This document shows positions 28,272 through 52,209 of a stretch of 64,000 bases of DNA, piece by piece. Positions within the stretch are counted from its first letter, which is position 1, and every line of letters starts with the position of its first letter. Source of the DNA: an uncultured Undibacterium sp. GTDB taxonomy: Bacteria; Pseudomonadota; Gammaproteobacteria; Burkholderiales; Burkholderiaceae_D. Under the pieces are notes generated by a model. That model saw nothing but the letters and a program-made list of their open reading frames with translations. It was not told the origin of the DNA and did no database searches. Made by a program: the position numbers and the translations under genes. The stretch covers positions 2,551 through 66,550 of the forward strand of contig CAUPNA010000004.1 in NCBI GenBank assembly GCA_963512475.1. Reading direction: 5' to 3'.

Positions 28272-29816
28272 ATGAATGAAAACGGTAAAAATGAAAACCG
28301 CGCAAAAGAAAATCGCATCAAAGATGTCGTCATCGTTGGTGGGGGCACTGCTGGTTGGATGAGTGCAGCAGCTATAGCGCAGTTACTGCCGACTGGATAC
28401 AACTATCGTCTGGTCGAGTCCGATCAAATTTCCACCATAGGGGTAGGAGAGGCGACGATACCTAGCATACGCAATTTCAATATGCATCTAGGCATAGATG
28501 AAAATGATTTCATCCGAAATACGCAAGGTACTTTTAAGCTCGGTATTGAATTCGTTAACTGGGGCATTAATAACAGCAAATACTTTCATGGCTTCGGCTC
28601 GGTGGGACGCGATCAGCCTACCGCAAATTTTTATCATTACTGGCTCAAACTCAATCAGCTAGGCATGGTGGGTGGTCTTGAGCCTTACTCCATCAATACG
28701 GTTGCGAGCATGTTGGGGAAGTTCAGTGTTGGTCGTCCCGACTTGCCGAATTCGCCCCTTGCCGATTTGTCGTACGCCTATCATTTTGATGCGGGTCTTT
28801 ACGCTAAATATTTACGTGCCTATGCCGAACAACGTGGCGTCAAACGTACTGAAGGTCGCATCGTCCAAACACTGTTACGTGAGAGCGATGGATTTATCGA
28901 GGCTTTGGTCATGGAGAACGGTGAAAAAATCCATGGCGATTTCTTTATTGATTGCTCGGGCATGGTTGGTCTCTTGATCGAAAAAGCCTTGAATACCGGC
29001 TACGAAGATTGGTCGCATTGGTTGCCTTGTGATACCGCTATCGCCGTGCCATGTGAGCTGGCAGGCTCGGCACAAGCACATACGCGCTCCACCGCCCACA
29101 GCGCGGGTTGGCAGTGGCGCATTCCTTTGCAGCACCGCATCGGTAACGGACACGTCTTTTCTAGTAAGTTTATGGACCACGACACCGCGCAAGACATCCT
29201 GATGAATAATCTAGACGGGAAAGCGTTGGCAGAGCCGCGTCAGATAAAATTTATTACTGGCAAACGTAAAAAAGCCTGGAACAAAAATTGTATCGCGATT
29301 GGCTTGTCAGGCGGCTTCATGGAGCCACTCGAGTCGACAAGTATTCACATGGTCAAAACAGGTTTGATGCGTTTGATTACCTTCTTCCCAGATAAAGATT
29401 TTGATCAGGTCGATATTGATAATTACAATCGCTTGACTGACAAAGAGTACGCTCAGATACGCGACTTCCTGATTTTGCATTACAAAGTGAATCAACGTGA
29501 CGACGCAGAATTCTGGCGCTATTGCCGTGAGATGGAGGTACCAGAAAGTCTGCAAGTTAAACTTGACCTCTTCGCCAGCCATGGACGAATTTTGCGCGAG
29601 AACGAAGAACTATTTCCCGAAGACAGTTGGCTACAAGTCATGCACGGACAAGGCATGCGACCCCGTCGCTACAATCCAGTCGTTGATCAGCGCAGCAAAG
29701 AAGAAATTGCCGGATTCTTGCACAATACACAGGCCGTAATTCGTAAATGTGTGGATGCCATGCCCTCGCATTTGGACTACATTCGCACCAATTGCGCTGC
29801 AAGAAAAGGCGTCTAA
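28272..29816 (+). CDS. Tryptophan halogenase family FAD-dependent protein (copy 1)
   Basis: VGGGTAGW, GVGEATIP, TFKLGI (catalytic Lys position), WQWRIPLQHR, FMEPLEST; alternative start 28242. Confidence 0.92.
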   Translation: MNENGKNENRAKENRIKDVVIVGGGTAGWMSAAAIAQLLPTGYNYRLVESDQISTIGVGEATIPSIRNFNMHLGIDENDFIRNTQGTFKLGIEFVNWGINNSKYFHGFGSVGRDQPTANFYHYWLKLNQLGMVGGLEPYSINTVASMLGKFSVGRPDLPNSPLADLSYAYHFDAGLYAKYLRAYAEQRGVKRTEGRIVQTLLRESDGFIEALVMENGEKIHGDFFIDCSGMVGLLIEKALNTGYEDWSHWLPCDTAIAVPCELAGSAQAHTRSTAHSAGWQWRIPLQHRIGNGHVFSSKFMDHDTAQDILMNNLDGKALAEPRQIKFITGKRKKAWNKNCIAIGLSGGFMEPLESTSIHMVKTGLMRLITFFPDKDFDQVDIDNYNRLTDKEYAQIRDFLILHYKVNQRDDAEFWRYCREMEVPESLQVKLDLFASHGRILRENEELFPEDSWLQVMHGQGMRPRRYNPVVDQRSKEEIAGFLHNTQAVIRKCVDAMPSHLDYIRTNCAARKGV

Positions 29817-29877
29817 TTATTCTAAATGTTTTGTTTGTGACGGTAATCCCGTTCAGTTAAGATTATTTTCATGTTTT

Positions 29878-29980
29878 GCCATTCCCGCGAAGAACCTGCC
29901 CTCGACTGTTTGAGTCGGGGGCAGGAATACCTTGACATAAAAAATTGAAGACGCTGGATCTCTGCCTACGTAGGGATGAC
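29878..29980. repeat. Degenerate GTCATTCCCGCG...GGGAATGAC (dRS3-like) palindromic element
   Basis: gccattcccgcg...ctggatctctgcctacgtagggatgac with internal hairpin cctgccctcgac/gtcgggggcagg. Confidence 0.65.
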
Positions 29981-30031
29981 GCTAAATCGTGCTTCACGTT
30001 CGCCACCGGCTTTTCCTCAAATCAATAAAGC

Positions 30032-30097
30032 ATCGATTTTTTCGAGTAATGAGATTCAATTAATCGATTTGAATCTAACTGCACTCGTCCTTACACT
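30032..30097 (+). promoter_or_regulatory. LysR-activated promoter upstream of the hpf-like gene
   Basis: T-N11-A boxes TCGATTTTTTCGA 30033-30045 and TTCAATTAATCGA 30055-30067 abutting TTGAAT-17-TACACT (30069-30097). Confidence 0.65.
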
Positions 30098-30129
30098 AAC
30101 TCCACTACCTAAATAAATGGAGAAACGTA

Positions 30130-30495
30130 ATGAACATCGATATACAGGCACGAGGTTTTGAGTTGACCGAAGGGCTACGCGCACATACCTATCGCCGTCT
30201 CAAGTTTGCCACCGACTGGGCTATGGATGATGTGAAAACAATTAAAGTCCGCCTTTCGGATATAAACGGCCCGCGTGGTGGTGCGGACAAACATTGTTTA
30301 ATTCAAATTCCTATGGCGAAAAAACAGCAAATTGTGATTCATGACACCGAAGCTGATTTGTACATCGCGATTGATAAAGCGATCAAGCGAGCCGAGCAAT
30401 TACTCGCTAAACGCATAGGTCGTATCAAAGAACACCCCCACGTCAAAGTGCATCATTTGGCTTATGACGACGAAGAAGAATTGATTTCTAAGTAA
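30130..30495 (+). CDS. HPF/RaiA family ribosome-associated protein
   Basis: MNIDIQARGFELTEGLR, VRLSDINGPRGGADKHC, DLYIAID. Confidence 0.88.
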   Translation: MNIDIQARGFELTEGLRAHTYRRLKFATDWAMDDVKTIKVRLSDINGPRGGADKHCLIQIPMAKKQQIVIHDTEADLYIAIDKAIKRAEQLLAKRIGRIKEHPHVKVHHLAYDDEEELISK

Positions 30496-30560
30496 AGCTT
30501 AAAGTAGTACGAGCTAAGCTGCAGACAGAAAACTAGCATTTTATTGATGAAAGACATGTC

Positions 30561-31076
30561 ATGAGAACTTATCCTGTAAATAGCCCTGAAGCGATGGCGC
30601 GTATCGTCGCTTTATCAATGTTGGTCGATGGTGGTTTGGATCAATCAGAACTGGACGTCGTTAGTCGTTATGGCATCGTCGAACGATTAGGATTAAGTGA
30701 TGATGAATTCGAAAAGATAGTGCACCACCTTTGTGAGGACATGCTGCAGTGTGCTGATGGTGCTCATTTTGGACAAATAGAGATCGCCAATCCAGCCATA
30801 GACCGTATTCTCGCTGAAATTAAAGATCTGAAACTGCGTAAACAGCTATTACGCATTATGGTCGCCATCGTCGACGCAGACGATATGCTGAGCGATGGTG
30901 AAGCTGTATTGATAGAACGCGCATTGCAATGCTGGATGCTTGATTTGGTGTCGATTAGTGACACACTTCTTGATGGCAATGTAGCGAATGACGATAGTTC
31001 GCAATCATCTCAGCAAGCGCATTTCCGAGATTATACCTCGACGAAAAAAGCCTCTATACTTGAAACACATTATTAA
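30561..31076 (+). CDS. TerB-family protein
   Basis: MRTYPVNSPEAMARIVAL..LVDG.L...E; AIVDAD..LSDGE. Confidence 0.75.
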   Translation: MRTYPVNSPEAMARIVALSMLVDGGLDQSELDVVSRYGIVERLGLSDDEFEKIVHHLCEDMLQCADGAHFGQIEIANPAIDRILAEIKDLKLRKQLLRIMVAIVDADDMLSDGEAVLIERALQCWMLDLVSISDTLLDGNVANDDSSQSSQQAHFRDYTSTKKASILETHY

Positions 31077-31167
31077 ATCTATTGGTCATTTAATGTGAAA
31101 TTGCTCGATGAAGTCGGATGGTTAGCATGAGCTGTAAAATACAGTTGTTGAGAAGTGAAAAGTACGT

Positions 31168-31746
31168 ATGCCAAAAAAATTCTTAAGAAGAGTACTCCCA
31201 AGTCGGGAGACGATAGAACGCATTCCGATTAGCCGCCGTTTTACCAATCGGCTTAATCGACCGGGTCTATGGGATATTGCGCGGGAGCCTGTGGCCATAG
31301 GTTTGGCGATTGGTGTCTTGTGCGGTATGATTCCAGGGCCTTTGCAGATGATCGCGGCAGTGACTTTAGCCTGCTTGTTACGAGTGAATTTGCCTATGGC
31401 GCTAATTGGGACGTTTCTCACGAATCCTATTACGATCGTGCCTATCTATATGTTGGCCTATGGGATCGGACAGAGCCTCAGCGGCGCCGCTCATTGGCAT
31501 GAACTACCAGCGATGCCGGTGACAGATTGGACCCAGCTTGTTGATAGTCTACACGCATGGTCAGCCTGGATGGCTTCCCTTGGAACGCCATGGCTGTTGG
31601 GTATGCTGATTCTAGCGCTCTCTTTGGCGGTAATTAGCTATTGCTGGGTGCAGGTGATCTGGCGCGGTTGTCGCTTCTGGAGTTTGCACTGTTTGCGAGT
31701 GCAAAGGCGTAATCGAATAGAACATATAAACAAAGCAATCATGTAG
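31168..31746 (+). CDS. DUF2062 family membrane protein
   Basis: VAIGLAIGV..GMIP.P.Q, RVNLP.AL..TFLTNP.T..P.Y. Confidence 0.82.
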   Translation: MPKKFLRRVLPSRETIERIPISRRFTNRLNRPGLWDIAREPVAIGLAIGVLCGMIPGPLQMIAAVTLACLLRVNLPMALIGTFLTNPITIVPIYMLAYGIGQSLSGAAHWHELPAMPVTDWTQLVDSLHAWSAWMASLGTPWLLGMLILALSLAVISYCWVQVIWRGCRFWSLHCLRVQRRNRIEHINKAIM

Positions 31747-31815
31747 AATAAAAAAGTACATAGCGCATTTGCTAATCAGGTATGTAGCTAAAAATTATAG
31801 ATAAGGGACTCCAAT

Positions 31816-32715
31816 TTGCCAGCGTTGAATTTCAAGCACCTCCGATATTATTGGACGGTCGCCAAGACCGGTAGCATCGCTAAGGCCGCTGAAAAGTTGC
31901 ATTTGACTGCACATGCGGTCAGCGGTCAGATCAACGAGTTTGAGCAGAGTCTCGGTGTGGAGCTATTTAAAAAAAATGGGCGCAATATCGAGTTGACTGA
32001 CGCCGGTCGGCGTATTCTCATTTATGCCGACGATATTTTTAATTCGGGCGACCAGCTACTCGATGCCTTACGTGATCACTTACAAGCGCGTCGTCGCACA
32101 TTTCGTGTGGGTATCGCCGATACCGTCCCCAAGATTATTGCTTACCGCTTACTGCAGCCTGCGATCGAACTAGAAGAGCCAGTTCGATTAAACTGTCGCG
32201 AGGGGCGTCTTGATCTCCTGTTGGCTGAATTGGCCTTGCATCGATTGGATGTCATTATTGCCGATCGCCCGATGGGGAATCAGACCAGTATTCGTGCTTA
32301 CAATCATTTGCTTGGAAAATGTGGCTTAACCGTGTTTGGAACATCGACATTAGCAAAGAAATACAAGGGTAGTTTTCCAGCATGCCTGCAACATGCACCC
32401 TTCTTAATACCTGGTGAAGACGTTGCGGTGCAAGCCAAAATTTTACAGTGGATGGAAGAGTCGGAATTGCATCCTATCATCGTTGGTGAGTTTGACGATG
32501 GCGCATTAATGAAAGCCTTTGGTCGTGCTGGGGCAGGTTTTTTCTTAGCGCCGACCGCAATGAAGAAGGAAATCTGTTCACAACATAATGTCGTAGCAAT
32601 TGGCGATGTTCCGAACATTGTTGAAGAAATTTATGTGATTACAATTGACCGCCGTCTAAATGATCCCGCCATCCTCGCCATTAGTCAGGCAGCCAAGCGC
32701 GACATCTTTGCATAA
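31816..32715 (+). CDS. nhaR: NhaR-like LysR transcriptional activator
   Basis: LNFKHLRYYWTVAKTGSI, VPKIIAYRLL, LALHRLD, GEFDDGALMKAFG. Confidence 0.82.
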   Translation: MPALNFKHLRYYWTVAKTGSIAKAAEKLHLTAHAVSGQINEFEQSLGVELFKKNGRNIELTDAGRRILIYADDIFNSGDQLLDALRDHLQARRRTFRVGIADTVPKIIAYRLLQPAIELEEPVRLNCREGRLDLLLAELALHRLDVIIADRPMGNQTSIRAYNHLLGKCGLTVFGTSTLAKKYKGSFPACLQHAPFLIPGEDVAVQAKILQWMEESELHPIIVGEFDDGALMKAFGRAGAGFFLAPTAMKKEICSQHNVVAIGDVPNIVEEIYVITIDRRLNDPAILAISQAAKRDIFA

Positions 32716-32860
32716 GGCAAGACCTCGAAGTGACTCGGTTTGGGTTTCAATTCCTAGTGAGCGCCGAGGTATAGGGCGCGATGAACGTAAAGAATACAAA
32801 CCCGATGCTGTGACTCTATAGTTAATCGAGGCCTGTGCTTCAAGCACACTGCACAAAACG

Positions 32861-32899
32861 CCCTTCTCCCGCAAGCGGGAGAAGGGTTGGGGATGAGGG
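32861..32899. repeat. CCCTCTCCC-type REP
   Basis: cccttctcccgcaagcgggagaagggttggggatgaggg; near-identical to 60058-60093. Confidence 0.85.
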
Positions 32900-33004
32900 T
32901 GGTTCAGGCGCGATCATACTATTTCGCCAGCCAAGCAGTCAGCCATTTTTGAGCAGATATCTAAATTTACTCAACTTAAATAAAACGAACTCGTAGCGAC
33001 CAAT

Positions 33005-34042
33005 TTACTGCGCCACCATCTCCACCCGACGATTACGCACACGTCCCGCTTCCTCCGTATTACTCGCCACTGGTGCCAGATTGGCGTTACCTTTGGCAAT
33101 TAAACGATTGGTGGCTATCTTATACGGAGCAGCGCTTAAAGCCTCGACTACTGCCTGTGCTCGTTGTAAAGACAGCGTCATATTGCTATCAAAATTGCCG
33201 ACATTATCGGTGTGGCCGACGATAAAGAATTTTTGCTGGGTTTGCGTTTGCATTAGTTTTGCCATTTCATCTAACTGAGCCTTTGAATCTGGCTTGATTT
33301 GCGCTTTGCCCGTATCAAAATACAGCCCGTACAAAGCGATCTTGCCCTCAGATTGCAAAGCCGCTTTGATCGCATTGGCGTCCACGCTGACCTGTCCGGT
33401 CTGCATCGCTTTGGGTTCTATGATTTGAATAAATGTCGCGGTCAATCCGGTCACGTTGTAGGCTGCCACCGAGGTGAACAGTAAGACATACACTTCTTGT
33501 CCGGCATTTTTTAGCGTGCCAACCATCATCAAACTCTTATCCGAACTCAAGGCTGAATAATGACTATAGCGACTGCCGTCCGGTGTATAAATACTGCCAT
33601 TCGCCCATTGCAAACCGTCGGTTGGCTTACTCAATTTGCCCCACGCAGAATACAGATTGGAACATTGGCTTTCACAACTAAATCGGGTTTTCAAACCAGC
33701 CGATTTCAAAGCCTGTTCATAATTACGAAATACTTCTAAAGGCACTTTTCCACGTGGCGCCAGATAAATCAAGCGTGTAATTTTGCCTTCAAGGGTGATG
33801 CTGTCTTTGATTTTTTGATCCTTATCCAATTGCGCACTGACCGGTAGCGTCGCCGCATTCCATTCGTCCTGTAGATAACCCGTTAACCACGATCCAGTAA
33901 AGCGTTTGATCAAAGGATGGTCTTGCGCTTTAGGAACATCAATACCCCATTCTTTGGCTTCATCGGCATGGCTGATGGTGGTGCTGAGGCTGAGTACCAA
34001 AAGTAATGAGCTGCTGAGTGCGGTGACGATAGATTTTTTCAA
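33005..34042 (-). CDS. DUF4892 + OmpA C-terminal domain protein
   Basis: DHPLIKRF.GS, LEGKITR..Y; OmpA motifs FDTGKA, VGHTDNVG, LSLQRAQAV, NRRVE; TTG 34042 after AAGGAAG. Confidence 0.85.
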   Translation of the reverse strand: MKKSIVTALSSSLLLVLSLSTTISHADEAKEWGIDVPKAQDHPLIKRFTGSWLTGYLQDEWNAATLPVSAQLDKDQKIKDSITLEGKITRLIYLAPRGKVPLEVFRNYEQALKSAGLKTRFSCESQCSNLYSAWGKLSKPTDGLQWANGSIYTPDGSRYSHYSALSSDKSLMMVGTLKNAGQEVYVLLFTSVAAYNVTGLTATFIQIIEPKAMQTGQVSVDANAIKAALQSEGKIALYGLYFDTGKAQIKPDSKAQLDEMAKLMQTQTQQKFFIVGHTDNVGNFDSNMTLSLQRAQAVVEALSAAPYKIATNRLIAKGNANLAPVASNTEEAGRVRNRRVEMVAQ

Positions 34043-34317
34043 AGTGACTTCCTTGGTTTGGATTTTGGCTAGGATAAGGGAGGAGGTGACTATTTTCTTT
34101 TCAATCATACTGTTAAAAAATAAATAATGTTGAGTATTCTTGAATGTGTTGATGAATGCAATTCAACATGTAGCTAGCCATGTTTTAGTTGACGCAGAAG
34201 ATATCATGATAAAATAAAATGCTTTACTATCACTGCAGCAAAATCTGACACGACGCTGTAGCCGACCCCCGCATAGTCCTTTTTGCGCACCAATTACATC
34301 TCTATCTTAAAACGCGA

Positions 34318-34905
34318 ATGAACCAACTACTCCAACAGCTCAATTTTTTACGCGAGATTGATCGCCTAAAATCCGTCATTCGACAATCACCCTTGCTAGA
34401 TCAAAGCCGCAAAGAAAACAGCGCAGAGCATTCCTGGCATCTGGCGATGTATGCCTTGCTTTTGCGTGATCATGCTGTGGGTGTAATTGATGTTGAACGT
34501 GTCGTTAAGATGTTGCTCATCCATGACATCGTTGAAGTGGATGTGGGTGACATACCTATCCATAGTGGTGCTTCATCGCAAGATCAAGCTCTCCTTGAGA
34601 CCCAAGCCGCGGCGCGACTGTTTGGCCTGCTGCCCGAACCACAAAACAGCGAACTACTCGCGCTCTGGCATGAGTTTGAAGACGCGATGACCGAGGACGC
34701 TAAGTTCGCCAAAGCACTTGATCGGGTGCAGCCTTTGCTGGTGAATGTCCATACTGGTGGCGGTACTTGGACTGAAAATGGTGTGAGTTTAGAGCAAGTT
34801 CTGCAGCGCTACGGCCCAGTCATCGCGCGCGGTTCGCCAGCGCTGTGGCAAGTTTGTGAGCAATTGGCGAGAGAGCATTTTGCCGCTCAAACGCCTGCGA
34901 TCTAA
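34318..34905 (+). CDS. HD domain-containing hydrolase (YfbR/HDDC2-like)
   Basis: ENSAEHSWH, LLIHDIVE, AKALDR. Confidence 0.88.
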   Translation: MNQLLQQLNFLREIDRLKSVIRQSPLLDQSRKENSAEHSWHLAMYALLLRDHAVGVIDVERVVKMLLIHDIVEVDVGDIPIHSGASSQDQALLETQAAARLFGLLPEPQNSELLALWHEFEDAMTEDAKFAKALDRVQPLLVNVHTGGGTWTENGVSLEQVLQRYGPVIARGSPALWQVCEQLAREHFAAQTPAI

Positions 34906-35136
34906 GGAATACTGAATTAAGCTTAGTGCTTGAAATAAGACTTGAGTATTTGATCGCGATTGCCTGGTGTGGGCTGTGCATGGGGCTTTGTATTCCGCGC
35001 ATGTGAATGCTGAGCGGTCTGAGCAAGGAGAAAAACTTGTTTGATTTTTCTTCTTTAAGTTTTGAAAATCGGGAAGCACCATATCAAACCGTGATGCTTA
35101 CTTAGAAAACACTCCAATAAACGAGGTCTTGCCTAT

Positions 35137-36072: not shown

Positions 36073-36107
36073 GTGACGTATCTATCTTTAAGAAAATGGC
36101 GTTTGAA

Positions 36108-36545: not shown

Positions 36546-36699
36546 CTGGTCGCCTCTAAAATTAACAGTTAAGGCAGTGTCGCATATCCAAATATCTGCG
36601 ACAATTGCCTAAATTCTGATGTATCCATCCGAATTTAAATGAATGCTGCCTCTGCTTGTCGCAGTTGTTCCGATAGAAATGAGACTCAAAGAGGCGCGT

Positions 36700-43588: not shown

Positions 43589-43620
43589 TCGCACATTGCA
43601 CAACGTGATCTGAGTTCCGA

Positions 43621-43914: not shown

Positions 43915-43915
43915 C

Positions 43916-44176: not shown

Positions 44177-44306
44177 GGCACCTGCTCAAAAGTAAATAAA
44201 TCGTTCGATTTGATTGAAATGATCGAAGTACTTGATTATATGCCTAATTTTGTCGCTGCGGTACCCATGGCACGCACTATGAGCTCACTACTTCTTGTAG
44301 AAATGC

Positions 44307-45029
44307 TTATGCCGTCTTTTTAAACTTAAAAAAGCCATTTAACGCCAAACGTGCTGTATTCGGCTCGCTATTCAATAGCGCTGGCTGGGTGATATGTGCA
44401 GCGTGGAAGATTGTGCCTTCGTAGAAAATGGCGCGATTCCACTTGGCGGGCACGGTATGCATTAACTCGAAATAATCATTGCTGGCATGTAGATAAGCTG
44501 GCGCAGTTTTGAGTAAAGTTGTGCAGGCCTCGGGCGTGGCATTTTGTGCGGTGCTTAGCAATTCACGTGTGGCATCCGCGCTGAGTTTGGGGCGATAAAA
44601 GCTGGTACCACCAAGTTCTGCATTTTGAAATAAATACACGACTGCAGCAGCAATCCCGACACCTGGTGGGAAAGTGTCAGCGTCACGATGGCAAAGTCTT
44701 TGTAAGGCATTAAGTTCATGCGGTTGTAAAGTGGTCATGGAGATTCTGCAGGCGACACCGAGTTGCCTACGCGCGGCAAAGTAACGACGCATTTGCAGCA
44801 TAAAGTACTGTTCCAGACTGAGCGCAAATTCTCGCCCCATGTCCATTTCTAAGCCTGGAAAATAGTTGTCCGCGTCATAGCGAAAATGTGCTCGTTGACT
44901 ATTCACCAAATCGACCATAGCCTGCGGTTCGCGTAAAAAATCATCAATCACGATGCAGTGGTGCCCGTCAAACAGCGGCACGACTTTGATGCTTGCATTT
45001 GGATTGAAAATGTCGCGGTTATTGAACAT
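44307..45029 (-). CDS. DUF6445 family protein (2OG-Fe(II) oxygenase-like)
   Basis: CIVIDDFL..P, YFPG, CHRD (HxD), LGGTSFY, WNR.IFY.G.IFH, distal RLALNGF. Confidence 0.78.
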   Translation of the reverse strand: MFNNRDIFNPNASIKVVPLFDGHHCIVIDDFLREPQAMVDLVNSQRAHFRYDADNYFPGLEMDMGREFALSLEQYFMLQMRRYFAARRQLGVACRISMTTLQPHELNALQRLCHRDADTFPPGVGIAAAVVYLFQNAELGGTSFYRPKLSADATRELLSTAQNATPEACTTLLKTAPAYLHASNDYFELMHTVPAKWNRAIFYEGTIFHAAHITQPALLNSEPNTARLALNGFFKFKKTA

Positions 45030-45094: not shown

Positions 45095-45991
45095 TTAAGG
45101 TTGATAAATCCGCACATAATCAATCTCAAATTTACTCGGAAAAATGCTGTCATCCACCGCACCACCGAGGTCACCGCCTATGGCGAGATTGAGGATTAAG
45201 TATTGTGGTTGATCGAAAGGCCATTTTTTATAGTCACCGGTTTTCGCGTTTACAAATTGAAAGTAGTACTTATCGTCAACCGCGATCGCTAACTGATTTT
45301 GGTCCCAATACAATTGATAGTTATGGAAAACATCGCAAGCGTCGTTGACCGTGGTCGCCTTGGTATTGCCCGTGCCATTCGCCCAGTTGTAAAAATTGCT
45401 GTAGGCGCTACCCAGAATTTGCCCCTTGTTTTTGCCAACATGTTCCATGATGTCGATCTCACCATCATCTGGCCACGCACCTTTTGTGCCTAGCGTCCAG
45501 ATCGCTGGCCAGGTCCCAAGGCCACAGGGGAGTTTGGCGCGAATCTCAAAAAAACCATAAGTCCAGCTTGCTTTGCCACGCGTCAACAGGCGCGCTGAGG
45601 TGTAAGCCTGGCCGCCAAAATCGGGGGCGCTGCTGAGTTGTTCTTTGAGTGCGGTTATAGTGAGTTTGCCATCTGCTACGCGGGCATTTTCTAGACGGTC
45701 TTTTGAATAGTATTGACGTTCATTATTGAACCATCCCGCTTTGTTTCTTTCCGTATCGAACATCCACTTGTCCGCACTGGGTAATCCGGCTTGATCAAAT
45801 TCATCGGACCAAACCAATTTCCAACCCGCTGGTTTGCCCCCGATTGGAAGGGAAGGCGTGCTTACGGTGGGAGCCGTAACCACAGGGGTGCTGACTGCTG
45901 GCGTCGTCGGATTCGTGCCCGATCCACCACCACAGGCGCTAAGCATGCTTGCCAAAAGTATGGCTAAAGGATAGAAATAAGCTTTCATCAA
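45095..45991 (-). CDS. GH16 endo-beta-1,3-glucanase (laminarinase-like), lipoprotein
   Basis: WSDEFD, YTSARL, WPAIW, GEIDIMEH (ExDxxE), LNLAIGG; lipobox LSAC. Confidence 0.9.
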   Translation of the reverse strand: MMKAYFYPLAILLASMLSACGGGSGTNPTTPAVSTPVVTAPTVSTPSLPIGGKPAGWKLVWSDEFDQAGLPSADKWMFDTERNKAGWFNNERQYYSKDRLENARVADGKLTITALKEQLSSAPDFGGQAYTSARLLTRGKASWTYGFFEIRAKLPCGLGTWPAIWTLGTKGAWPDDGEIDIMEHVGKNKGQILGSAYSNFYNWANGTGNTKATTVNDACDVFHNYQLYWDQNQLAIAVDDKYYFQFVNAKTGDYKKWPFDQPQYLILNLAIGGDLGGAVDDSIFPSKFEIDYVRIYQP

Positions 45992-46055: not shown

Positions 46056-46110
46056 TGGAATCGTTTCCAATTTGTCGGGAAGTATGGCATTATTCATTTT
46101 TAAATGTCAA
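46056..46110 (-). promoter_or_regulatory. GH16/DUF6445 promoter with operator
   Basis: Minus strand TTGACA (46110-46105), 18 bp, TGcCATACT (46089-46081), operator TGGAATCGTTTCCA 46056-46069. Confidence 0.8.
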
Positions 46111-46138
46111 CAACAGTGTGGTTTTGAAGTGAGAGAAA

Positions 46139-46220
46139 GTAGGGTGCGCCGTGCGCACCGCCTATCAATAACTCCAACCGCGGTAACTTCATTCTTGTTG
46201 GTGCGCACTGCACACCGCAC
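46139..46220. repeat. GTAG-type REP doublet between the divergent promoters
   Basis: gtagggtgcgccgtgcgcacc ... ggtgcgcactgcacaccgcac. Confidence 0.75.
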
Positions 46221-46245
46221 CAATGACGCCATCAGCTGATGTGAA

Positions 46246-46299
46246 TTGACATCTAAAAATGAAGAATGCTATAGTCGTCGAAGAGTGGTAACGTTTCCA
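46246..46299 (+). promoter_or_regulatory. ABC operon promoter with operator
   Basis: TTGACA 46246-46251, 18 bp, TGcTATAGT, operator TGGTAACGTTTCCA 46286-46299. Confidence 0.82.
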
Positions 46300-46414: not shown

Positions 46415-47671
46415 ATGTTCAAGCTTAACTATCCTTTACTGGCTATGTGTCTGGCCTCGTTTGCCAGTGCATCCACAGCGCAGGCGCAGGCAACCAAGCC
46501 AGTGCCTGTCGAAAAAGCCGAAATTATTCATTGGTGGACCTCTAGTAGCGAGTCGGCGGCAGCCAAGCTGATCGCTGATGCTTATCGTAAAGCCGGCGGT
46601 ATCTGGGTCGATTCGGCGGTTGCAGGTGCCGACCAGGCTAGAGCCGTGGCGATCAATCGTATCGTTGGCAGTAATCCACCCACTGCGGCGCAGTTCAACA
46701 CGACCAAGCAATTTCTTGATTTGGTCGAACAAGGCATGCTCAATAATGTCGATGACGTTGCCAAGAACGAGGGTTGGGAAAAATTTTTGCCTGAGCCCGT
46801 CTTGAATGTGATCCGGATCAAAGGCCATTACTACGCCGTGCCCGTGAATATCCATATGCAGACTTGGTTCTGGTACTCCAAAGCTGCATTTAAAAAAGCG
46901 GGTATCGCTAAAGAGCCAGCGACTGTGGATGAGATGTTTGCCGCACTCGATAAGTTGAAAGCAGCTGGCATCATTCCACTCGCGCATGGTGGCCAAGCCT
47001 GGCAAGAAACCATCGTGTTTCAAGCCATGCTAGCCAATCTCGGTGGTAAAGATCTCTATCTGAGCGTGATCCGCGATCGCGACCAAAAAGCCATCAACTC
47101 TGAAGCCTTTAAGAAAGTATTAACCGCCTTCAAGCGCATGCAGACCTATGTTGATGCAGGTGCGCCAGGTCGCAACTGGAATGACGCTACCGCATTATTG
47201 ATCAGCGGCAAAGCGGGTATGCAGATTATGGGCGATTGGGTAAAAGGGGAGTTCGCAGCAGCTAAGCAAGTCGCTGGCAAAGACTTTGGCTGTATCGCAG
47301 GATTAACCCCAAATTCGCCTTATCTGATTCAAGGTGATGCTTTCGTTTTTCCTCGCACCACTAATCCTTCTAGGGTGAACGCGCAAAAATTATTAGCGAA
47401 AGTCGTGCTGACCCCGAGCACACAGTTGGAATTCAATAAATTGAAAGGCTCGATTCCTATCCGCAGTGATGTTGATACGTCGACCATGGATATTTGCGCG
47501 CAAGCGGGGATGGCGATTATGAAAGACAAATCGCGCCAAGTAGGCATTAGCGAAATGTTTTTGACGCCAGATCAAAACGGTGCGTTGCAGGATATTTTGA
47601 CGGCATTTTGGAATACCCGCATGCCAGTAGAAAAAGCCCAAAAAAGCATTGCCAATGCTTTGAAAGACTAA
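46415..47671 (+). CDS. Sugar ABC transporter substrate-binding protein (GtsA-like)
   Basis: EIIHWWTS..E, PPTAAQ, YYAVPVNIH, MQIMGDWVKGEF, KGSIPIR. Confidence 0.9.
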   Translation: MFKLNYPLLAMCLASFASASTAQAQATKPVPVEKAEIIHWWTSSSESAAAKLIADAYRKAGGIWVDSAVAGADQARAVAINRIVGSNPPTAAQFNTTKQFLDLVEQGMLNNVDDVAKNEGWEKFLPEPVLNVIRIKGHYYAVPVNIHMQTWFWYSKAAFKKAGIAKEPATVDEMFAALDKLKAAGIIPLAHGGQAWQETIVFQAMLANLGGKDLYLSVIRDRDQKAINSEAFKKVLTAFKRMQTYVDAGAPGRNWNDATALLISGKAGMQIMGDWVKGEFAAAKQVAGKDFGCIAGLTPNSPYLIQGDAFVFPRTTNPSRVNAQKLLAKVVLTPSTQLEFNKLKGSIPIRSDVDTSTMDICAQAGMAIMKDKSRQVGISEMFLTPDQNGALQDILTAFWNTRMPVEKAQKSIANALKD

Positions 47672-47709
47672 GTAAGTCAATAAGTAAACAAATAAGTAAA
47701 TAAATACGA

Positions 47710-48612
47710 ATGCAAATCAAAGCCCTCAGCCGTAAAACCAAATCACTGATCCCATCCGCAGCCTTGCTGCCTATGGCTTTAGTGACTTTGGTCGCCTATC
47801 TGGGTGCGACACTGTGGTCGATTAAAGTCTCGTTTTCCAATTCCCGCACGATGCCGACCGACACCTTTGTCGGCATGGCGCAATACACCAAACTGTTTGA
47901 GAACGAACGGTGGCTATTATCGATAGAAAATATTGCGATCTACACGGTACTCTTTATTCTGGTCAGCATGGTCTTGGGATTTTTGCTGGCCGTATTTATC
48001 GATCAAAAAGTGACAGCAGAAGGCGTATTGCGCACGGTATTTTTGTATCCCTACGCGATGTCCTTCGTCGCGACTGGTTTGATTTGGCAATGGATGCTGA
48101 CACCTGGCATAGGCATAGAATACGCGGTGCGGCAGATGGGTTATCCGGATTTTGTGTTTGACTGGATTATTGATCAGGACAAAGTCATCTACACCATCGT
48201 GATCGCCACCGTTTGGCAAACCGCCGGCTTGGTGATGGCCTTATTGTTGGCAGCCTTGCGTGGCATAGACGAAGAAATTTGGAAAGCCGCGAGACTCGAT
48301 GGTATTCCGGTGTGGCGGGTGTATGTGTCTATTGTGATTCCTATGTTGGCACCAGCCATCGCGACCGTCTTCCTTCTATTGTCCACCACGGCAATCAAAC
48401 TATTTGATTCCGTCGTCGCCATGACCCAAGGTGGTCCCGGCACAGCCAGTGAAGTGCCGGCTAAATTCATTATGGATCACTTGTTTGGTCGCGCTAATAT
48501 TGCCCTTGCCTCGGCAGGTGCGGTCATGCTGTTAGTGCCAGTCATTGCGATACTCGCGCCCTATGTGTATGCGCGCAACCGTAATGTACGTAACCATAAG
48601 GCGGGCAAATGA
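47710..48612 (+). CDS. Sugar ABC transporter permease
   Basis: TM helices, FLYP.A.SF..TG..W, EAA-like KAARLDG. Confidence 0.9.
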   Translation: MQIKALSRKTKSLIPSAALLPMALVTLVAYLGATLWSIKVSFSNSRTMPTDTFVGMAQYTKLFENERWLLSIENIAIYTVLFILVSMVLGFLLAVFIDQKVTAEGVLRTVFLYPYAMSFVATGLIWQWMLTPGIGIEYAVRQMGYPDFVFDWIIDQDKVIYTIVIATVWQTAGLVMALLLAALRGIDEEIWKAARLDGIPVWRVYVSIVIPMLAPAIATVFLLLSTTAIKLFDSVVAMTQGGPGTASEVPAKFIMDHLFGRANIALASAGAVMLLVPVIAILAPYVYARNRNVRNHKAGK

Positions 48613-49541
48613 GCACTATTTTGCCATCCGCTGCTGATGCTACAAACGTTGCCAAATCAGCCCAAAGCCGGAAGCGACACGGCAGAAGCAAGCGATTTAG
48701 TCTCGCTCGCTTAGGCATATATGCTTTTTTGATCAGCGCCGCAATTTTCTTTTTGCTGCCGCTCTACATCATGCTCACGACCTCAGTGAAAAGCATGGAT
48801 GAAATTCGCATGGGTAACATCTTTGCCTTGCCACAGCAATTTAGCCTGAATGCCTGGACTATTGCTTGGACCAGCGCCTGCACTGGTATTGATTGCGAAG
48901 GCATACGTGGTGGCTTTATGAACTCGGTAGTGATCGCGATACCGAGTACCTTGATACCGATTTTTCTCGGTGCTTTGAATGGCTATGCCTTGTCGTTCTG
49001 GCGTCCACGTGGTGCGAATATTTTGTTTGGTATCTTGATGGTCGGTGCTTTCATCCCTGTGCAGGTGATGATCTTTCCCTTAGTGAGAATTTTAGCCAGC
49101 ATCGATTTGTATAGCTCTTTGCCAGGCATTGTCTTGGTTCATACGGTGTTTAGTATGCCGGTGATGACGCTACTCTTTCGTAATTATTACAGCACGATAC
49201 CGCATGAGCTGTTTCAAGCGGCGCGTATCGATGGTGGTGGTTTCATTCGAATTTTTATACAACTGATTTTGCCGATGTCGACCCCAATTATTGTGGTGGC
49301 GGCGATTATGCAATTGACCGGTGTTTGGAATGATTACATTCTAGGATTGGTGTTTGCTGGACGTGAGCATTTACCGATGACGGTGCAACTAAATAATGTG
49401 ATCAATACCACCACTGGTACGCGCATGTACAACGTGAATATGGCAGCGACCATTTTGACTTCGCTGGTGCCTTTGACATTGTATTTCGTCTCGGGGCGCT
49501 GGTTTGTGCGCGGTATCGCGGCAGGTGCGGTTAAGGGATAG
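48609..49541 (+). CDS. Sugar ABC transporter permease
   Basis: ELFQAARIDG EAA motif, WND, GIAAGAVKG end. Confidence 0.9.
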   Translation: MSTILPSAADATNVAKSAQSRKRHGRSKRFSLARLGIYAFLISAAIFFLLPLYIMLTTSVKSMDEIRMGNIFALPQQFSLNAWTIAWTSACTGIDCEGIRGGFMNSVVIAIPSTLIPIFLGALNGYALSFWRPRGANILFGILMVGAFIPVQVMIFPLVRILASIDLYSSLPGIVLVHTVFSMPVMTLLFRNYYSTIPHELFQAARIDGGGFIRIFIQLILPMSTPIIVVAAIMQLTGVWNDYILGLVFAGREHLPMTVQLNNVINTTTGTRMYNVNMAATILTSLVPLTLYFVSGRWFVRGIAAGAVKG

Positions 49542-49588
49542 AACAATTTTGATGCTGTTTCGAAAAAATATTAAGGCTTAGGAAAACT

Positions 49589-50653
49589 GTGGCGAATGTC
49601 TGTCTACAAAATTTAGGCATCAATCTGGGCGGGAATCAGATCATTTCTGACCTCAATTTAAACGTTGAGGCGGGAGAGTTTTTGGTTTTGCTGGGACCTT
49701 CAGGGTGCGGTAAATCCACTCTGTTGCATGCTATCGCGGGTTTGATTGATGTCAACTCAGGTAGTGTGGAAATTGCAGGTGAGGATATGACTTGGGCTGA
49801 TCCTAGCGAACGTCAAATTGGTATGGTGTTTCAATCCTACGCCTTGTATCCGACCATGACGGTAGAAAAAAACATGTCATTCGGCTTGCGTATCAACGGG
49901 ACACCCAAAGCAGAAATCGCACGACGTATAGAAAAAGTCGCTGAGATGTTGCACTTGACGCCCTTGCTGCAGCGAAAACCAGCCGCCTTGTCTGGTGGCC
50001 AAAGACAGCGGGTTGCCATCGGACGTGCTTTGGTGCGTGAGGCGGAAGTATTTTTATTTGATGAGCCCTTGTCGAATCTGGATGCCAAGCTACGTAGCAA
50101 TTTACGACGTGAACTTAAGCTTTTGCACCAACAACTGCAGTCCACCATGATTTATGTCACGCACGATCAAGTCGAGGCGATGACTTTAGCAACGCGCATC
50201 GTCGTGATGCAAGGTGGCAAAATCCAGCAAATCGGAACACCGGAATGTGTTTATGAACGCCCAGTGAACTTGTTTGTCGCGGGATTTTTGGGGGCGCCGG
50301 CGATGAATTTTATTAGCGGTGAACTCGATACTCAAGCTCACTTTGTCTCAAATACCTTGAGTATCGATTTGTCGACTTATGCTTTTGCAGCACCTTGGTC
50401 GGCGAGTGCGGAGGTCATGTTAGGTGTGCGCCCTGAGCAGATACAAATCCGTGATGATGGCCAGTTCGTCGGGGCGGTCATGTTGGTCGAGCCTATGGGT
50501 AATCATCAAGTCGTATGGCTACAGGCAGGCACGCAAACTATTTCCAGTATCGTCAACGATCAGCGTCCGTTCGAGATCGGTCAGACAGTTTTGTACACTA
50601 TCGACACGCGCAAAGTTTCTCTGTTTAATCCGCAAAGTGAGCAAAGACTATGA
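49589..50653 (+). CDS. Sugar ABC transporter ATP-binding protein (MalK/UgpC family)
   Basis: GPSGCGKST, LSGGQRQR, DEPLSNLDAK, YVTHDQ. Confidence 0.95.
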   Translation: MANVCLQNLGINLGGNQIISDLNLNVEAGEFLVLLGPSGCGKSTLLHAIAGLIDVNSGSVEIAGEDMTWADPSERQIGMVFQSYALYPTMTVEKNMSFGLRINGTPKAEIARRIEKVAEMLHLTPLLQRKPAALSGGQRQRVAIGRALVREAEVFLFDEPLSNLDAKLRSNLRRELKLLHQQLQSTMIYVTHDQVEAMTLATRIVVMQGGKIQQIGTPECVYERPVNLFVAGFLGAPAMNFISGELDTQAHFVSNTLSIDLSTYAFAAPWSASAEVMLGVRPEQIQIRDDGQFVGAVMLVEPMGNHQVVWLQAGTQTISSIVNDQRPFEIGQTVLYTIDTRKVSLFNPQSEQRL

Positions 50654-52209
50654 ACCATTCTACCAATGCAGGCCAAGCCGCCAGCACTGATGCGCAGATA
50701 CGTGACATCGTGATCGTCGGCGGTGGCACGGCAGGCTGGATGACGGCGGCTGCACTGTCACGCATGCTACCGCAGGGTAAGCGTATTCGTTTGGTGGAAT
50801 CAGATCAGATCTCCACCATCGGTGTAGGCGAAGCGACGATACCTAGCATCCGCGCCTTTAATCAATTGCTCAATCTGGATGAAGATGAATTCATGCGTCA
50901 GACCCAGGCCACCTTTAAGCTGGGTATCGAGTTCGTCAATTGGGGCAAGCAGGGCGATTCCTACATCCACGGTTTTGGTCAGATTGGACGCGATCAGGTC
51001 GTGGCGAAGTTTTATCAATATTGGTTGAAGATGTATCAGGCCGGTACAGTGCCGGATTTGGAAGCGTTTTCCATCAATACGGTAGCGCCGCGTCAGGGCA
51101 AATTTATGCGTCCGCCCAAGGACATGCCGAATTCACCGCTGTCCGATATTTCGTACGCTTTTCATTTTGATGCAGGTCTGTATGCGCGCTATTTACGGGG
51201 CATCAGCGAAGCACAGGGGGTGGTGCGAAGTGAAGGCCGTATCGTCGACGTGTTGACACGTGCTCACGATGGACATATCGAAACCTTGGTGATGGAAAAT
51301 GGTGAGCAGTTCACCGGTGATCTATTCATCGATTGCTCAGGTTTGGCCGCTTTGCTGATAGAAAAGACTTTGCAAACCGGCTATGAGGATTGGAGTCACT
51401 GGTTGCCAGCGAATAGTGCGATTGCTGTGCCATGTACATCGACCACACCTTTACATCCTTATACGCGCTCGACCGCACATAAGGCAGGCTGGCAATGGCG
51501 TATTCCTTTGCAACACCGTATCGGCAATGGACATGTGTTTAGTAGTCAATTTATGAGCGCCGACGAAGCCCAGTCTATCTTGTTGAACAATCTCGATGGC
51601 AGTGTGTTGGCGGAACCGCGCTTAATTAAATTCACGACTGGCAAGCGTAAGAAAGCCTGGAACAAGAATTGTGTTGCGATGGGACTGGCGGGTGGTTTTA
51701 TGGAGCCACTCGAATCAACCAGCATACACATGGTGCAAACTGCCATCATGCGTCTGCTGAGTTTGTTTCCAGATCGCGGTTTTAATCAGGTTGATATCGA
51801 TACTTATAACGCGCAGAACGATGAAGAATATCAGCGTATTCGTGATTTTCTCATCATGCACTATAAGCTGAATACGCATGAAAATGCGCCGTTCTGGGAA
51901 TATTGTCGCACGATGGAAGTACCCGCTGAAGTGCAGCATCGTATTGATTTGTATCGTAGTCACGGCAGAATCTTCCGCTTAGGCGAAGAGTTATTTGCCG
52001 ATGCCAGCTGGCTGCAAGTCATGCACGGACAAGGTTTGCGCGCAACGTCTTATCATCCATTAGTCGATCAGCGTAGTGCCGAGGACATACAGTATTTTTT
52101 AGATCAGGTACAAAAAACGATAGCCAAATGCGTGGAAGTGATGCCGACGCATGCGGAATTTATTGCAGCGACTTGTGCGGCTAATACAGTAGTGAGTGCG
52201 GCGGCTTGA
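50650..52209 (+). CDS. Tryptophan halogenase family FAD-dependent protein (copy 2)
   Basis: VGGGTAGW, TFKLGI, WQWRIPLQHR, FMEPLEST; ATGA overlap with ABC ATPase stop. Confidence 0.92.
   Translation: MNHSTNAGQAASTDAQIRDIVIVGGGTAGWMTAAALSRMLPQGKRIRLVESDQISTIGVGEATIPSIRAFNQLLNLDEDEFMRQTQATFKLGIEFVNWGKQGDSYIHGFGQIGRDQVVAKFYQYWLKMYQAGTVPDLEAFSINTVAPRQGKFMRPPKDMPNSPLSDISYAFHFDAGLYARYLRGISEAQGVVRSEGRIVDVLTRAHDGHIETLVMENGEQFTGDLFIDCSGLAALLIEKTLQTGYEDWSHWLPANSAIAVPCTSTTPLHPYTRSTAHKAGWQWRIPLQHRIGNGHVFSSQFMSADEAQSILLNNLDGSVLAEPRLIKFTTGKRKKAWNKNCVAMGLAGGFMEPLESTSIHMVQTAIMRLLSLFPDRGFNQVDIDTYNAQNDEEYQRIRDFLIMHYKLNTHENAPFWEYCRTMEVPAEVQHRIDLYRSHGRIFRLGEELFADASWLQVMHGQGLRATSYHPLVDQRSAEDIQYFLDQVQKTIAKCVEVMPTHAEFIAATCAANTVVSAAA

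Follow-up and report, generated by a model that had tools for sequence, protein, structure and literature searches.

What do two flavin-dependent halogenases, Hal1 and Hal2, and an oxygenase-like protein of the family DUF6445 do among genes for the use of beta-glucan? The question is raised by a stretch of 64,000 nucleotides from an uncultured Undibacterium sp., hereafter called the window. A first-pass annotation of it had placed the three enzymes in a sugar-catabolic regulon and regarded them as the best candidate for an undescribed system. Every item that it observed was confirmed, and its interpretation held in part. The wiring into a sugar regulon and the recurrence beside TonB receptors stood, while the undescribed system and the proposed action on glucoside aglycones did not.

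Results

In the window, a freshwater Undibacterium (Oxalobacteraceae) encodes a regulon for the use of beta-glucan under LacI-type (BglR-like) control; the genes, promoters and terminator-like sites of this regulon are on the plus strand unless stated otherwise. The halogenase and oxygenase genes form two loci with 14.5 kb of unrelated genes between them (29816-44307: HPF, TerB, LysR, OmpA, HD, MBL, patatin, AraC and ParE), and the span 28272-52209 is not a single unit. One LacI-type palindrome ties both loci together. Sites with at most one mismatch number eight in the 4.39-Mb genome, six of them in the window, where a seventh site has two mismatches; seven operators were thus observed in the window against 0.25 expected. 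The gene of the TonB-dependent receptor (OmpBgl-like, 898 aa, 25365..28061, PF07715 and PF00593) was rightly described as operator-bearing, as its promoter region (24980..25057) has operators at 24980-24993 and 25044-25057, on both sides of the promoter TTGACA-18-TATATT (25002-25031). Orthologous sites lie upstream of the receptor gene in the related loci L033, L035, L037, L025 and L032.

The second locus is controlled from a divergent region (46056..46299) with two operators and two promoters, which is conserved in the related loci L016-L026. The operator 46056-46069 is downstream of the minus-strand promoter 46110-46081, which faces the GH16-DUF6445 operon, and on the plus strand the promoter TTGACA-18-TATAGT (46246-46275) precedes the operator 46286-46299 and a sugar ABC importer (46415..50653, Pfam scan). 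The importer consists of a substrate-binding protein (46415-47671), two permeases (47710-48612 and 48609-49541) and a MalK-like ATPase (49589-50653). The LacI-family protein encoded at 52666..53742 (Pfam scan) is presumed, by analogy to Shewanella BglR, to be the regulator that binds the palindrome. The rest of the regulon (53814..62994), recognised by operators and Pfam scan, comprises GH5 (53873-55489), a first GH1 (55458-56879), GH3 (57472-60045), an MFS transporter (60235-61626) and a second GH1 (61648-62994), with operators ahead of GH5 (53814-53827) and ahead of GH3 (57151-57164 and 57184-57197).

The operons of Hal1, Hal2 and DUF6445 each have a sigma-70-like promoter with the operator TGGAAACGTTTCCA directly downstream of the -10. 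The orthologous promoters of Undibacterium, Massilia, Telluria and MAGs carry these sites too, a conservation that spans the Oxalobacteraceae, and this supports the claim that the three enzymes belong to a sugar regulon. Hal1, Hal2 and DUF6445 are cytoplasmic accessory enzymes inside the operons of this regulon.

Halogenase 1 (524 aa, PF04820 and motifs) is encoded at 28242..29816. The gene itself had been recognised correctly, but the start assigned to it, 28272, is the internal Met11 of this open reading frame and is given here as the alternative start. The hairpin reported between the receptor gene and Hal1 was found again as an intrinsic-terminator-like site (28132..28180) with two stem segments, 9 and 8 bp long, a 7-nt loop and a T run; the hairpin covers 28132-28174 and is followed by TTTTTT, and the intergenic fold has -48 kcal/mol (z = -3.4). 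Each of the 15 intergenic regions considered between a receptor gene and a halogenase gene (that of the window and those of 14 related loci) has a terminator-like feature, with unrelated sequences.

Halogenase 2 (519 aa, 50650..52209, PF04820 and motifs) is the last gene of the ABC operon, and its start shares the 4-nt ATGA at 50650-53 with the stop of the ATPase gene, as had been noted. The operon ends with a long inverted repeat and terminator-like site (52241..52343; 52315-52336 and then a T run). Hal2 falls in a monophyletic clade of ABC-linked halogenases, an Oxalobacteraceae clade that has been relocated into the ABC-importer operon.

The two halogenases are 65% identical over 504 aa and match PF04820 over the full length (E 5e-188 for Hal1 and 1e-191 for Hal2). 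GGGTAGW, TFKLG, GWQWRIPL and GGFMEPLESTSI are present in both, and in the HMMER alignment with PrnA the Lys of TFK coincides with K79 and the second Glu of EPLEST with E346, in agreement with the GxGxxG, K79-equivalent Lys, WxWxIP and FxEPLEST described before. Both also have the group C motif pattern ATIPSI / HGFG. From their sequences, Hal1 and Hal2 are predicted to be catalytically intact members of the BrvH/Xcc4156 "group C" clade, which does not act on tryptophan. Both are under strong purifying selection, with dN/dS of 0.029 for Hal1 against Undibacterium sp. Di24W and 0.020 for Hal2 against U. danionis, a species in which both loci are present (0.02-0.03, as for transporter subunits).

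The DUF6445 protein (240 aa, 44307..45029, minus strand, PF20043 E 6e-59) has an Fe(II)/2-oxoglutarate oxygenase fold. Its gene follows that of an EglC-like GH16 endo-beta-glucanase (45095..45991, minus strand, PF00722), the first gene of the operon, and the 65 nt between the GH16 stop and the DUF6445 start hold no terminator-like site, as the first-pass annotation had it. The HxD...H...R pattern that it reported corresponds to H114, D116, H209 and R227, which are invariant among 34 homologs. The AF2 model is a double-stranded beta-helix (pLDDT 94.9), and its Foldseek matches are P4H, KanJ and SnoN; this points to an Fe(II)/2OG oxygenase that resembles prolyl-hydroxylase-type enzymes. Phage relatives were also found (phrog_1644 at E 1e-21 and a cyanophage match), and the cyanophage homolog is located among other 2OG oxygenases, beside a tail-fibre-like gene.

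The genome has five halogenase paralogs, and every one lies in a locus for the uptake of a sugar: beta-glucan, starch, chitin and, in one case, unassigned. Paralogs 58-60% identical to the window halogenases have the same placement in a TBDR-MFS-GH13-GH31-LacI starch locus, and a more distant one is accompanied by DUF6445 in a locus for GlcNAc/chitin. The clade of Hal1 and that of Hal2 have 233 invariant columns in common and only 22 fixed differences. With so few fixed differences and with paralogs across the uptake loci of different sugars, the role of the halogenases would be generic and not glucoside-specific. Among 78 related loci, the receptor gene is directly upstream of the halogenase in 41, an ABC ATPase is the partner in 12 and a DUF6445 gene is no more than 7 kb away in 32. 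The halogenase keeps its position and orientation across classes of Proteobacteria. Such a halogenase occurs in 16 of 81 genomes of the family, a patchy distribution, and its linkage to ABC operons has at least three separate origins.

For the window, Pfam scans of ORFs no shorter than 100 aa between 18.7 and 63.8 kb, together with six ORFs of the first 10.5 kb, bear out the remark that no flavin reductase, NRPS/PKS or prnBCD is nearby. Two flavin reductases (PF01613) are encoded elsewhere in the genome. In the genome, which is 92% complete, no tryptophanase was found, the best Beta_elim_lyase match being threonine aldolase; no halogenase has SapC beside it, the single SapC gene being elsewhere; and no JmjC/Cupin_8 was above the family cut-off. 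The absence of tryptophanase, JmjC and a second SapC is not certain because of this completeness. No conserved precursor-peptide gene adjoins the halogenases, and no scaffold genes for a halometabolite were found.

Discussion

We consider it probable, at about 60%, that the regulon with its embedded halogenases and oxygenase is best explained by a non-sugar aromatic substrate. Beta-glucan oligosaccharides would release the repressor and turn the halogenases on. Housekeeping flavin reductases would supply FADH2, which with O2 and halide may allow the halogenation of an electron-rich aromatic ring, and DUF6445 may hydroxylate the same or a related substrate. This substrate would be neither a sugar nor a glucoside aglycone but something common to the glucan, starch and chitin regulons, and the many paralogs would mean that each regulon supplies its own co-regulated copy. 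Hal1 holds the canonical spot behind the receptor gene and the terminator, with output probably by read-through and far below the receptor level. Hal2 is an Oxalobacteraceae duplicate relocated to the last position in the ABC importer operon, and DUF6445 rides behind the secreted GH16.

With low confidence, we suggest as the substrate not free indole but an aromatic, Trp-like residue of a protein or peptide that is connected with the uptake machinery. Free indole is disfavoured because no tryptophanase was found. The leaning towards a peptide or protein comes from the larger or peptide substrates proposed by the authors of the BrvH and Xcc4156 studies, the prolyl-hydroxylase likeness of DUF6445 and the cyanophage homolog beside a tail-fibre-like gene. 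The receptor need not be the target, since Hal2 and DUF6445 are away from the receptor gene here. Several points count against the preferred explanation. To our knowledge, protein halogenation within primary metabolism has no precedent. Fresh water is scarce in halide, and the characterised relatives of Hal1 and Hal2 prefer bromide. Because of the terminator after the receptor gene, Hal1 could also be wholly outside co-induction.

It is possible that a halometabolite is made on glucan sensing. The enzymes would then produce a small diffusible halogenated or hydroxylated aromatic, an antagonist or signal, that shields the oligosaccharides released by the glucanases from competitors, with one copy per regulon for co-expression. 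The secreted GH16 and GH5, the single halogenase copy of each sugar regulon, the few fixed differences between the Hal1 and Hal2 clades and the in vitro halogenation of free indole and its derivatives by the BrvH and Xcc enzymes are consistent with this, but scaffold, tailoring and export genes are lacking nearby in the window Pfam scans, a tryptophanase that could supply indole was not found, fresh water is bromide-poor, the indole activity is weak in vitro, and the authors who reported it doubt that indole is the native substrate. We regard this explanation as unlikely. A passenger or non-halogenating role, as a flavin monooxygenase, a structural or regulatory partner or a companion of mobile uptake cassettes, would fit the patchy distribution and the repeated origin of the ABC linkage; it is distinctly improbable, as the catalytic Lys and Glu and the FAD and halide-site motifs are strictly kept at low dN/dS and the conserved placement extends across proteobacterial classes.

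The suggestion that indoxyl, saligenin, hydroquinone and similar aglycones, freed from aryl-beta-glucosides by the local GH1 and GH3, are modified gains from the cytoplasmic GH1 beta-glucosidases of the same regulon and from the chemical suitability of phenols and indoles for halogenases. However, starch and chitin release no aromatic aglycone and their loci hold paralogs, which argues against it. Moreover, the conserved partner is an importer gene, and the published neighbourhood is centred on the TonB receptor with no sugar specificity (PMC2938197). It was considered very unlikely. From gene neighbourhoods, Iyer et al. proposed that amino acids are turned by the cassette into a siderophore-like compound, halogenated and hydroxylated, which the neighbouring TonB receptor imports (PMC2938197). 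In its favour, the receptor of the window matches siderophore and haem receptor models weakly and below threshold; against it, every match to siderophore models is far under the cut-off. Its promoter shares the LacI operator with the GH16, GH5, GH3 and ABC sugar genes, Hal2 is within a sugar ABC operon, and the window Pfam scans held no NRPS or siderophore-synthesis genes. This prediction hardly applies here.

Comparison with known systems

BrvH (Brevundimonas sp. BAL3, 6FRL), Xcc4156 (Xanthomonas campestris B100, 6Y1W) and 9LUQ align end-to-end with Hal1 and Hal2 (E 1e-142 to 1e-159). Common to all of them are the catalytic Lys and Glu, WxWxIP, the halide-site variant EPLESTS and the group C pattern, and all lack the motifs that clamp tryptophan. 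The BrvH/Xcc4156 clade brominates indole in vitro and is inactive on tryptophan, and its native substrate is not established. In contrast to these enzymes, Hal1 and Hal2 come from a freshwater betaproteobacterium, and Hal2 is encoded within an ABC importer operon, not behind a TonB receptor gene. The true tryptophan 7-halogenases PrnA and RebH have the same fold family and catalytic K79 and E346, but their alignments stop at about residue 445, short of the C-terminal tryptophan-binding part, with E of about 1e-80 where that of the BrvH clade is 1e-155, and no prnBCD or reb genes accompany Hal1 and Hal2.

Rodionov et al. described in 2010 the Shewanella BglR beta-glucoside regulon (PMC2996990), which likewise has a LacI-type repressor, sites upstream of a TonB receptor (OmpBgl), a GH16 (LamA-type) glucanase, GH1 and GH3 beta-glucosidases and inner-membrane sugar transporters. 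Unlike it, Undibacterium has an ABC importer as well as the MFS transporter, and adds two halogenases and DUF6445; PMC2996990 makes no mention of "halogenase".

Iyer, Abhiman, de Souza and Aravind in 2010 reported a neighbourhood of TonB receptor, tryptophan-halogenase, SapC and JOR-JmjC, with or without a Syn9-gp52-like 2OG dioxygenase (PMC2938197). Together with the 41 receptor-linked loci, it agrees with the statement that halogenase-like genes recur beside such receptors with unresolved function; co-expression of the receptor and halogenase genes was reported in Colwellia. The window is a reduced local form of this widespread neighbourhood. The order of receptor gene and halogenase (Hal1), the presence of several paralogs in one genome and the sporadic distribution are alike, and so is DUF6445 as a classical 2OG dioxygenase that has relatives in phages. 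On the other hand, SapC beside a halogenase and JmjC/Cupin_8 were not found here, Hal2 and DUF6445 lie apart from the receptor gene, one in the ABC operon and the other in the GH16 operon, and the surroundings point clearly to LacI-controlled carbohydrate use, not to a siderophore-like system. As both the enzyme clade and the gene neighbourhood are already published, this is not a new system; the locus is genuine and an ordinary representative of a kind that is known but not yet solved.

Results

Gene content, taken from the ORF listing and from Pfam scans of the window ORFs, showed two separate loci. Locus A has a TonB-dependent receptor (TBDR) gene (25365-28061) upstream of Hal1, the first of two flavin-dependent halogenase genes (28242-29816). 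Hal1 had been recognized in the first-pass annotation, but the start proposed there, 28272, is an internal Met of an ORF that begins at 28242. In locus B, a GH16 gene (45095-45991) and the gene of DUF6445, a protein of the Fe(II)/2OG oxygenase fold (44307-45029), are both on the minus strand and divergent from a sugar ABC importer operon (46415-50653), in which the second halogenase gene, Hal2 (50650-52209), is the last gene. The lacI gene (52666-53742) is located downstream of Hal2 and is followed by GH5, GH1, GH3, MFS and second GH1 genes, as far as 62994. The genes noted earlier within the span 28272-52209 were all present, but they belong to two loci with 14.5 kb of unrelated genes between them (29816-44307: HPF, TerB, DUF2062, two LysR, OmpA, HD phosphohydrolase, metallo-beta-lactamase-fold protein, patatin, AraC and ParE).

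The gene junctions agreed with the first-pass annotation. The Hal2 start overlaps the ATPase stop as ATGA, the DUF6445 gene starts 65 nt past GH16 with no terminator-like site in the gap, and the receptor gene and Hal1 are separated by a terminator-like hairpin with 17 pairs in its stem (segments of 9 and 8 bp, 28132-28174) and a T run behind it. All 15 of the receptor-to-halogenase intergenic regions that were folded have a GC-rich hairpin with a run of T after it, although their sequences are unrelated. A putative terminator or attenuator that separates a strongly expressed receptor gene from an enzyme gene expressed at a low level therefore seems to be part of a conserved design.

The closest genomes were those of Undibacterium and other Oxalobacteraceae, with 98% identity to an uncultured Undibacterium, and the sequencing runs holding the sequence were freshwater metagenomes. 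One candidate expression run (X5, kind unstated) proved to be genomic DNA of a relative, evenly covered, and not RNA. Between the loci, an af470-like monooxygenase gene, a metallo-beta-lactamase-fold protein gene and a divergent LysR gene form a small unrelated module (35137-37596). A ParE-family toxin ORF (43621-43932, minus strand; PF05016, E 2e-17) directly adjoins the DUF6445 gene and presumably belongs to a parDE pair that borders locus B. After Hal2 there is a long inverted repeat with arms of ~23 bp (52241-52343), and at 52350-52683 the contig depth in a DNA run of a relative was ~10-fold above the flanks, with many loose ends; a REP- or MITE-like dispersed repeat probably lies here (52241-52683), between Hal2 and lacI. 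On the minus strand at 5518-9324, the gene downstream of another TonB-dependent receptor gene (6430-9324) encodes a GH19 chitinase (5518-6249), and there is no halogenase gene; a halogenase is not carried by every carbohydrate-type receptor gene of this genome.

In Proteobacteria that degrade polysaccharides, few "orphan" enzymes are as common as the halogenases of the BrvH/Xcc4156 clade, whose genes are routinely annotated, wrongly, as tryptophan halogenase or antibiotic genes. Hal1 and Hal2, which are 65% identical to each other, matched PF04820 (Trp_halogenase) with 626 and 638 bits (cut-off 21) over model positions 1-456 of 458. GGGTAGW (GxGxxG), TFKLG, GWQWRIPL (WxWxIP) and GGFMEPLESTSI, including EPLEST, are present in both proteins. 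HMMER alignment to PrnA placed K79 at the Lys of TFK and E346 at the second Glu of EPLEST, and both catalytic residues are invariant across the Hal1 and Hal2 clades; the motif reading of the first-pass annotation was thus borne out.

The nearest solved structures, 9LUQ, Xcc4156 (6Y1W) and BrvH (6FRL), aligned end to end, including the C-terminal module, with E values of 1e-142 to 1e-159 (residues 17-505 and 26-514 of the queries). The true tryptophan halogenases PrnA and RebH gave E values of ~1e-80, and their alignments end near residue 445, so that no C-terminal tryptophan-clamping region of the PrnA/RebH type aligned beyond this point in Hal1 or Hal2. At the Trp1 and Trp2 sites, both proteins have the group C pattern ATIPSI/HGFG. 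The corresponding motifs have been reported as ATIPSL/HSFGH in Xcc-b100-4156 and ATIPTI/HPFGL in BrvH (PMC8269204), and Hal1 and Hal2 lack the motifs with which groups A and B bind tryptophan. By these sequence comparisons, Hal1 and Hal2 are placed in the group C clade of BrvH/Xcc4156 type. A likeness to LodB/QhpG (NCBIfam), flavoenzymes that modify protein tryptophan, was confined to the Rossmann region and far below the cut-offs, and was not counted as evidence.

The dN/dS values of Hal2 (0.020, against U. danionis) and Hal1 (0.029, against Undibacterium sp. Di24W) were comparable to those of transporter subunits; the genes are intact and under purifying selection. The two clades have 233 invariant columns in common and only 22 fixed differences, which cluster at residues 153-167 and in the C-terminal module.

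The palindrome TGGAAACGTTTCCA occurs at seven window sites with two mismatches or fewer, against 0.25 expected. With at most one mismatch it occurs at only eight sites in the 4.39-Mb assembly, six of which are in the window; the two-mismatch site of the window is upstream of GH3. The seventh genome-wide site (C88:11918), on another contig, is ~410 nt upstream of a gene for a 612-aa secreted GH5-like protein, which is probably a further regulon member, and the eighth (C38:21210), between unrelated genes, may be due to chance. The receptor, GH16-DUF6445 and ABC-Hal2 promoters are alike, with a near-consensus extended -10 element and the operator 10-13 nt downstream of it. The sites recur at orthologous promoters in Undibacterium, Massilia, Telluria and several MAGs, and the layout parallels the reconstructed BglR regulon of Shewanella. 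A candidate LacI (BglR-like) operator is shared by the promoters of all member operons and conserved in orthologous loci. The first-pass annotation had described the enzymes as wired into a sugar regulon. Because the operators are found at three enzyme-bearing promoters, are conserved across genera and have a BglR-like layout, this description stands at the level of comparative genomics, and the enzyme genes are assigned to operator-bearing operons of a predicted beta-glucan regulon.

In DUF6445, the HxD...H...R pattern noted earlier corresponds to H114, D116, H209 and R227 (the metal triad and the basic residue for the 2OG C5 carboxylate), which are invariant in 34 homologs 28-79% identical to the window protein. 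The AlphaFold (AF2) model (pLDDT 94.9, pTM 0.91) has a predicted double-stranded beta-helix fold. It matched 51 PDB entries at E ≤ 1e-3, and every one of the 50 listed was an Fe/2OG enzyme apart from two uncharacterised proteins; prolyl 4-hydroxylases, KanJ and SnoN were included (TM ~0.45, identity ~12%). The phage family phrog_1644 (E 1e-21) and a P4H-like gene in a Synechococcus phage 2OG-oxygenase cluster (E 5e-5) also matched DUF6445. In Synechococcus phage Sf-FS3 (6962-14196), a DUF6445 homolog and two further 2OG-Fe(II) oxygenase genes come immediately behind a gene of very large size that encodes a peptidase-S74 (tail-fibre-type) protein.

The DUF6445 gene (44307-45029) is only 58% identical to its counterpart in the related U. 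danionis locus (3771-4475), where the neighbouring genes are 86-96% identical. At 0.36, its dN is 4.5 times the GH16 value (0.080) and roughly ten or more times the values of the other neighbours (0.02-0.04); either the gene is fast-evolving or a paralog has taken its place.

Five halogenase paralogs of full length are encoded in the assembly, all in sugar-uptake loci. In addition to Hal1 and Hal2, these are in a starch-type locus (TBDR-Hal-MFS-GH13-GH31-LacI), in a TBDR/Hal-LacI locus, and in a chitin-type locus, where a Hal-DUF6445 pair lies between two receptor genes beside a GlcNAc kinase gene and a GntR regulator gene. Pairwise identities within the group of Hal1, Hal2 and the starch-locus paralog are 58-65%, against 31-37% between these three and the remaining two. 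Across 78 related loci, a TonB receptor gene stood immediately upstream of the halogenase in 41, an ABC ATPase gene in 12 and another gene in 20, and in 5 this position was cut off by a contig end; DUF6445 was within 7 kb of the halogenase in 32 of the 78. The ABC-linked Hal2 sequences form a monophyletic group in the tree (SH-aLRT 99) that is sister to the receptor-linked Hal1 clade, inside the Oxalobacteraceae, and ABC linkage arose at least three times. The locus shows that the selected linkage is to co-regulation with sugar import generally, by TonB receptor or ABC importer alike, and is not tied to one sugar or to siderophore uptake.

In Massilia sp. CF038 (2078-14222 of the related locus), TBDR-Hal1 and DUF6445, the latter divergent from SBP-Hal2-LacI-GH1, are contiguous; a 4-nt overlap joins Hal2 to a lone substrate-binding-protein gene, and the permease and ATPase genes are absent. 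The contiguous layout suggests one ancestral locus that was split in Undibacterium. A comparison of halogenase and receptor co-occurrence over 81 family genomes was set aside as invalid, with only 11 receptor candidates scored per genome and TonB receptors too diverse, and inspection of the halogenase-partnered receptors by eye showed no distinguishing N-terminal motif or conserved Trp.

Discussion

The shared operators suggest that Hal1, Hal2 and DUF6445 would be induced together with glucan uptake. As signal peptides are lacking and FADH2 is needed, the enzymes would act in the cytoplasm, and their substrate is expected to be aromatic and not specific to beta-glucosides. The first-pass annotation had proposed, as one of two options, that aglycones released from aryl-beta-glucosides are modified; this is unlikely because the same enzymes serve starch and chitin loci. 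Iyer et al. (2010, PMC2938197) predicted a halogenated siderophore-like product from the gene neighbourhood, and the sugar-repressor wiring and the ABC linkage found here argue against it. Pfam scans of the window ORFs of 100 aa or more at 18.7-63.8 kb and of six ORFs in the first 10.5 kb found, as annotated earlier, no flavin reductase, NRPS/PKS or prnBCD gene, and genes of reb or similar tryptophan-halogenase clusters were likewise absent; two PF01613 flavin reductase genes are elsewhere in the genome, in which no tryptophanase was found.

BrvH and the Xanthomonas enzymes have been reported to brominate indole and its derivatives and to refuse tryptophan, with an open substrate site, and the authors proposed peptides or larger molecules as substrates. 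The open active sites of these solved relatives, the protein-hydroxylase-like partners, the missing scaffold pathway and the missing tryptophanase lead us to lean weakly to a peptide- or protein-borne residue over a small diffusible product. In its most specific form, the halogenases and DUF6445 would be protein modifiers, by which an aromatic residue of the import machinery (the receptor precursor, a binding protein or a partner) is halogenated or hydroxylated during induced glycan uptake. We consider this form improbable, at roughly one chance in eight. If it is true, it would be the first halogenation known as a post-translational modification in primary nutrient uptake, and the minimal Undibacterium form without SapC and JmjC would be the core of a protein-modifying system.

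For the purpose of these halogenases, in question since 2010, this locus offers a clean testing ground, with a sharply defined regulon, two paralogs in different operon contexts and a minimal cassette. Both loci also occur in cultured relatives, Undibacterium danionis CCM 8677 among them, which would be a convenient test bed, and many other loci would be equally suitable. On the physiological role of receptor-linked halogenases, a full-text literature search turned up only Iyer et al.; Blanvillain et al. (2007) and Rodionov et al. (2010, PMC2996990) do not mention halogenases.

The first-pass annotation regarded the genes as the best candidate for an undescribed system, but both the enzyme clade (BrvH/Xcc4156) and the gene neighbourhood have already been published. 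Iyer, Abhiman, de Souza and Aravind (2010, PMC2938197) described a conserved neighbourhood in alpha- and gammaproteobacteria in which a TonB-class receptor is accompanied by one to three tryptophan-halogenase homologs, SapC and a JOR/JmjC protein. In some cases a second 2OG dioxygenase, a classical one that belongs to the Syn9-gp52-like family, is present as well. Going by its matches to phrog_1644 and the Synechococcus phage gene, DUF6445 may correspond to this second dioxygenase. The single SapC gene of the genome (C3:23330-24073) is on another contig, beside neither a halogenase nor a TonB receptor gene, and no Cupin_8 match for JmjC reached the cut-off in the genome. As in Campylobacter, the SapC gene is preceded by the gene of a repeat-rich protein (1330 aa, S-layer- or RTX-like). 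As in the published neighbourhood, a receptor gene stands directly beside Hal1 and three other paralogs of the genome, whereas Hal2 adjoins an ABC ATPase gene and SapC and JOR/JmjC genes are not near the halogenases of the window. Since Iyer et al. stated that the neighbourhood "might additionally encode" SapC and JOR/JmjC, their absence does not exclude membership. The locus is a real, well-conserved and ordinary member of this known cassette; its local variations are that one paralog is coupled to an ABC importer and that the gene set is minimal, lacking both SapC and JmjC.
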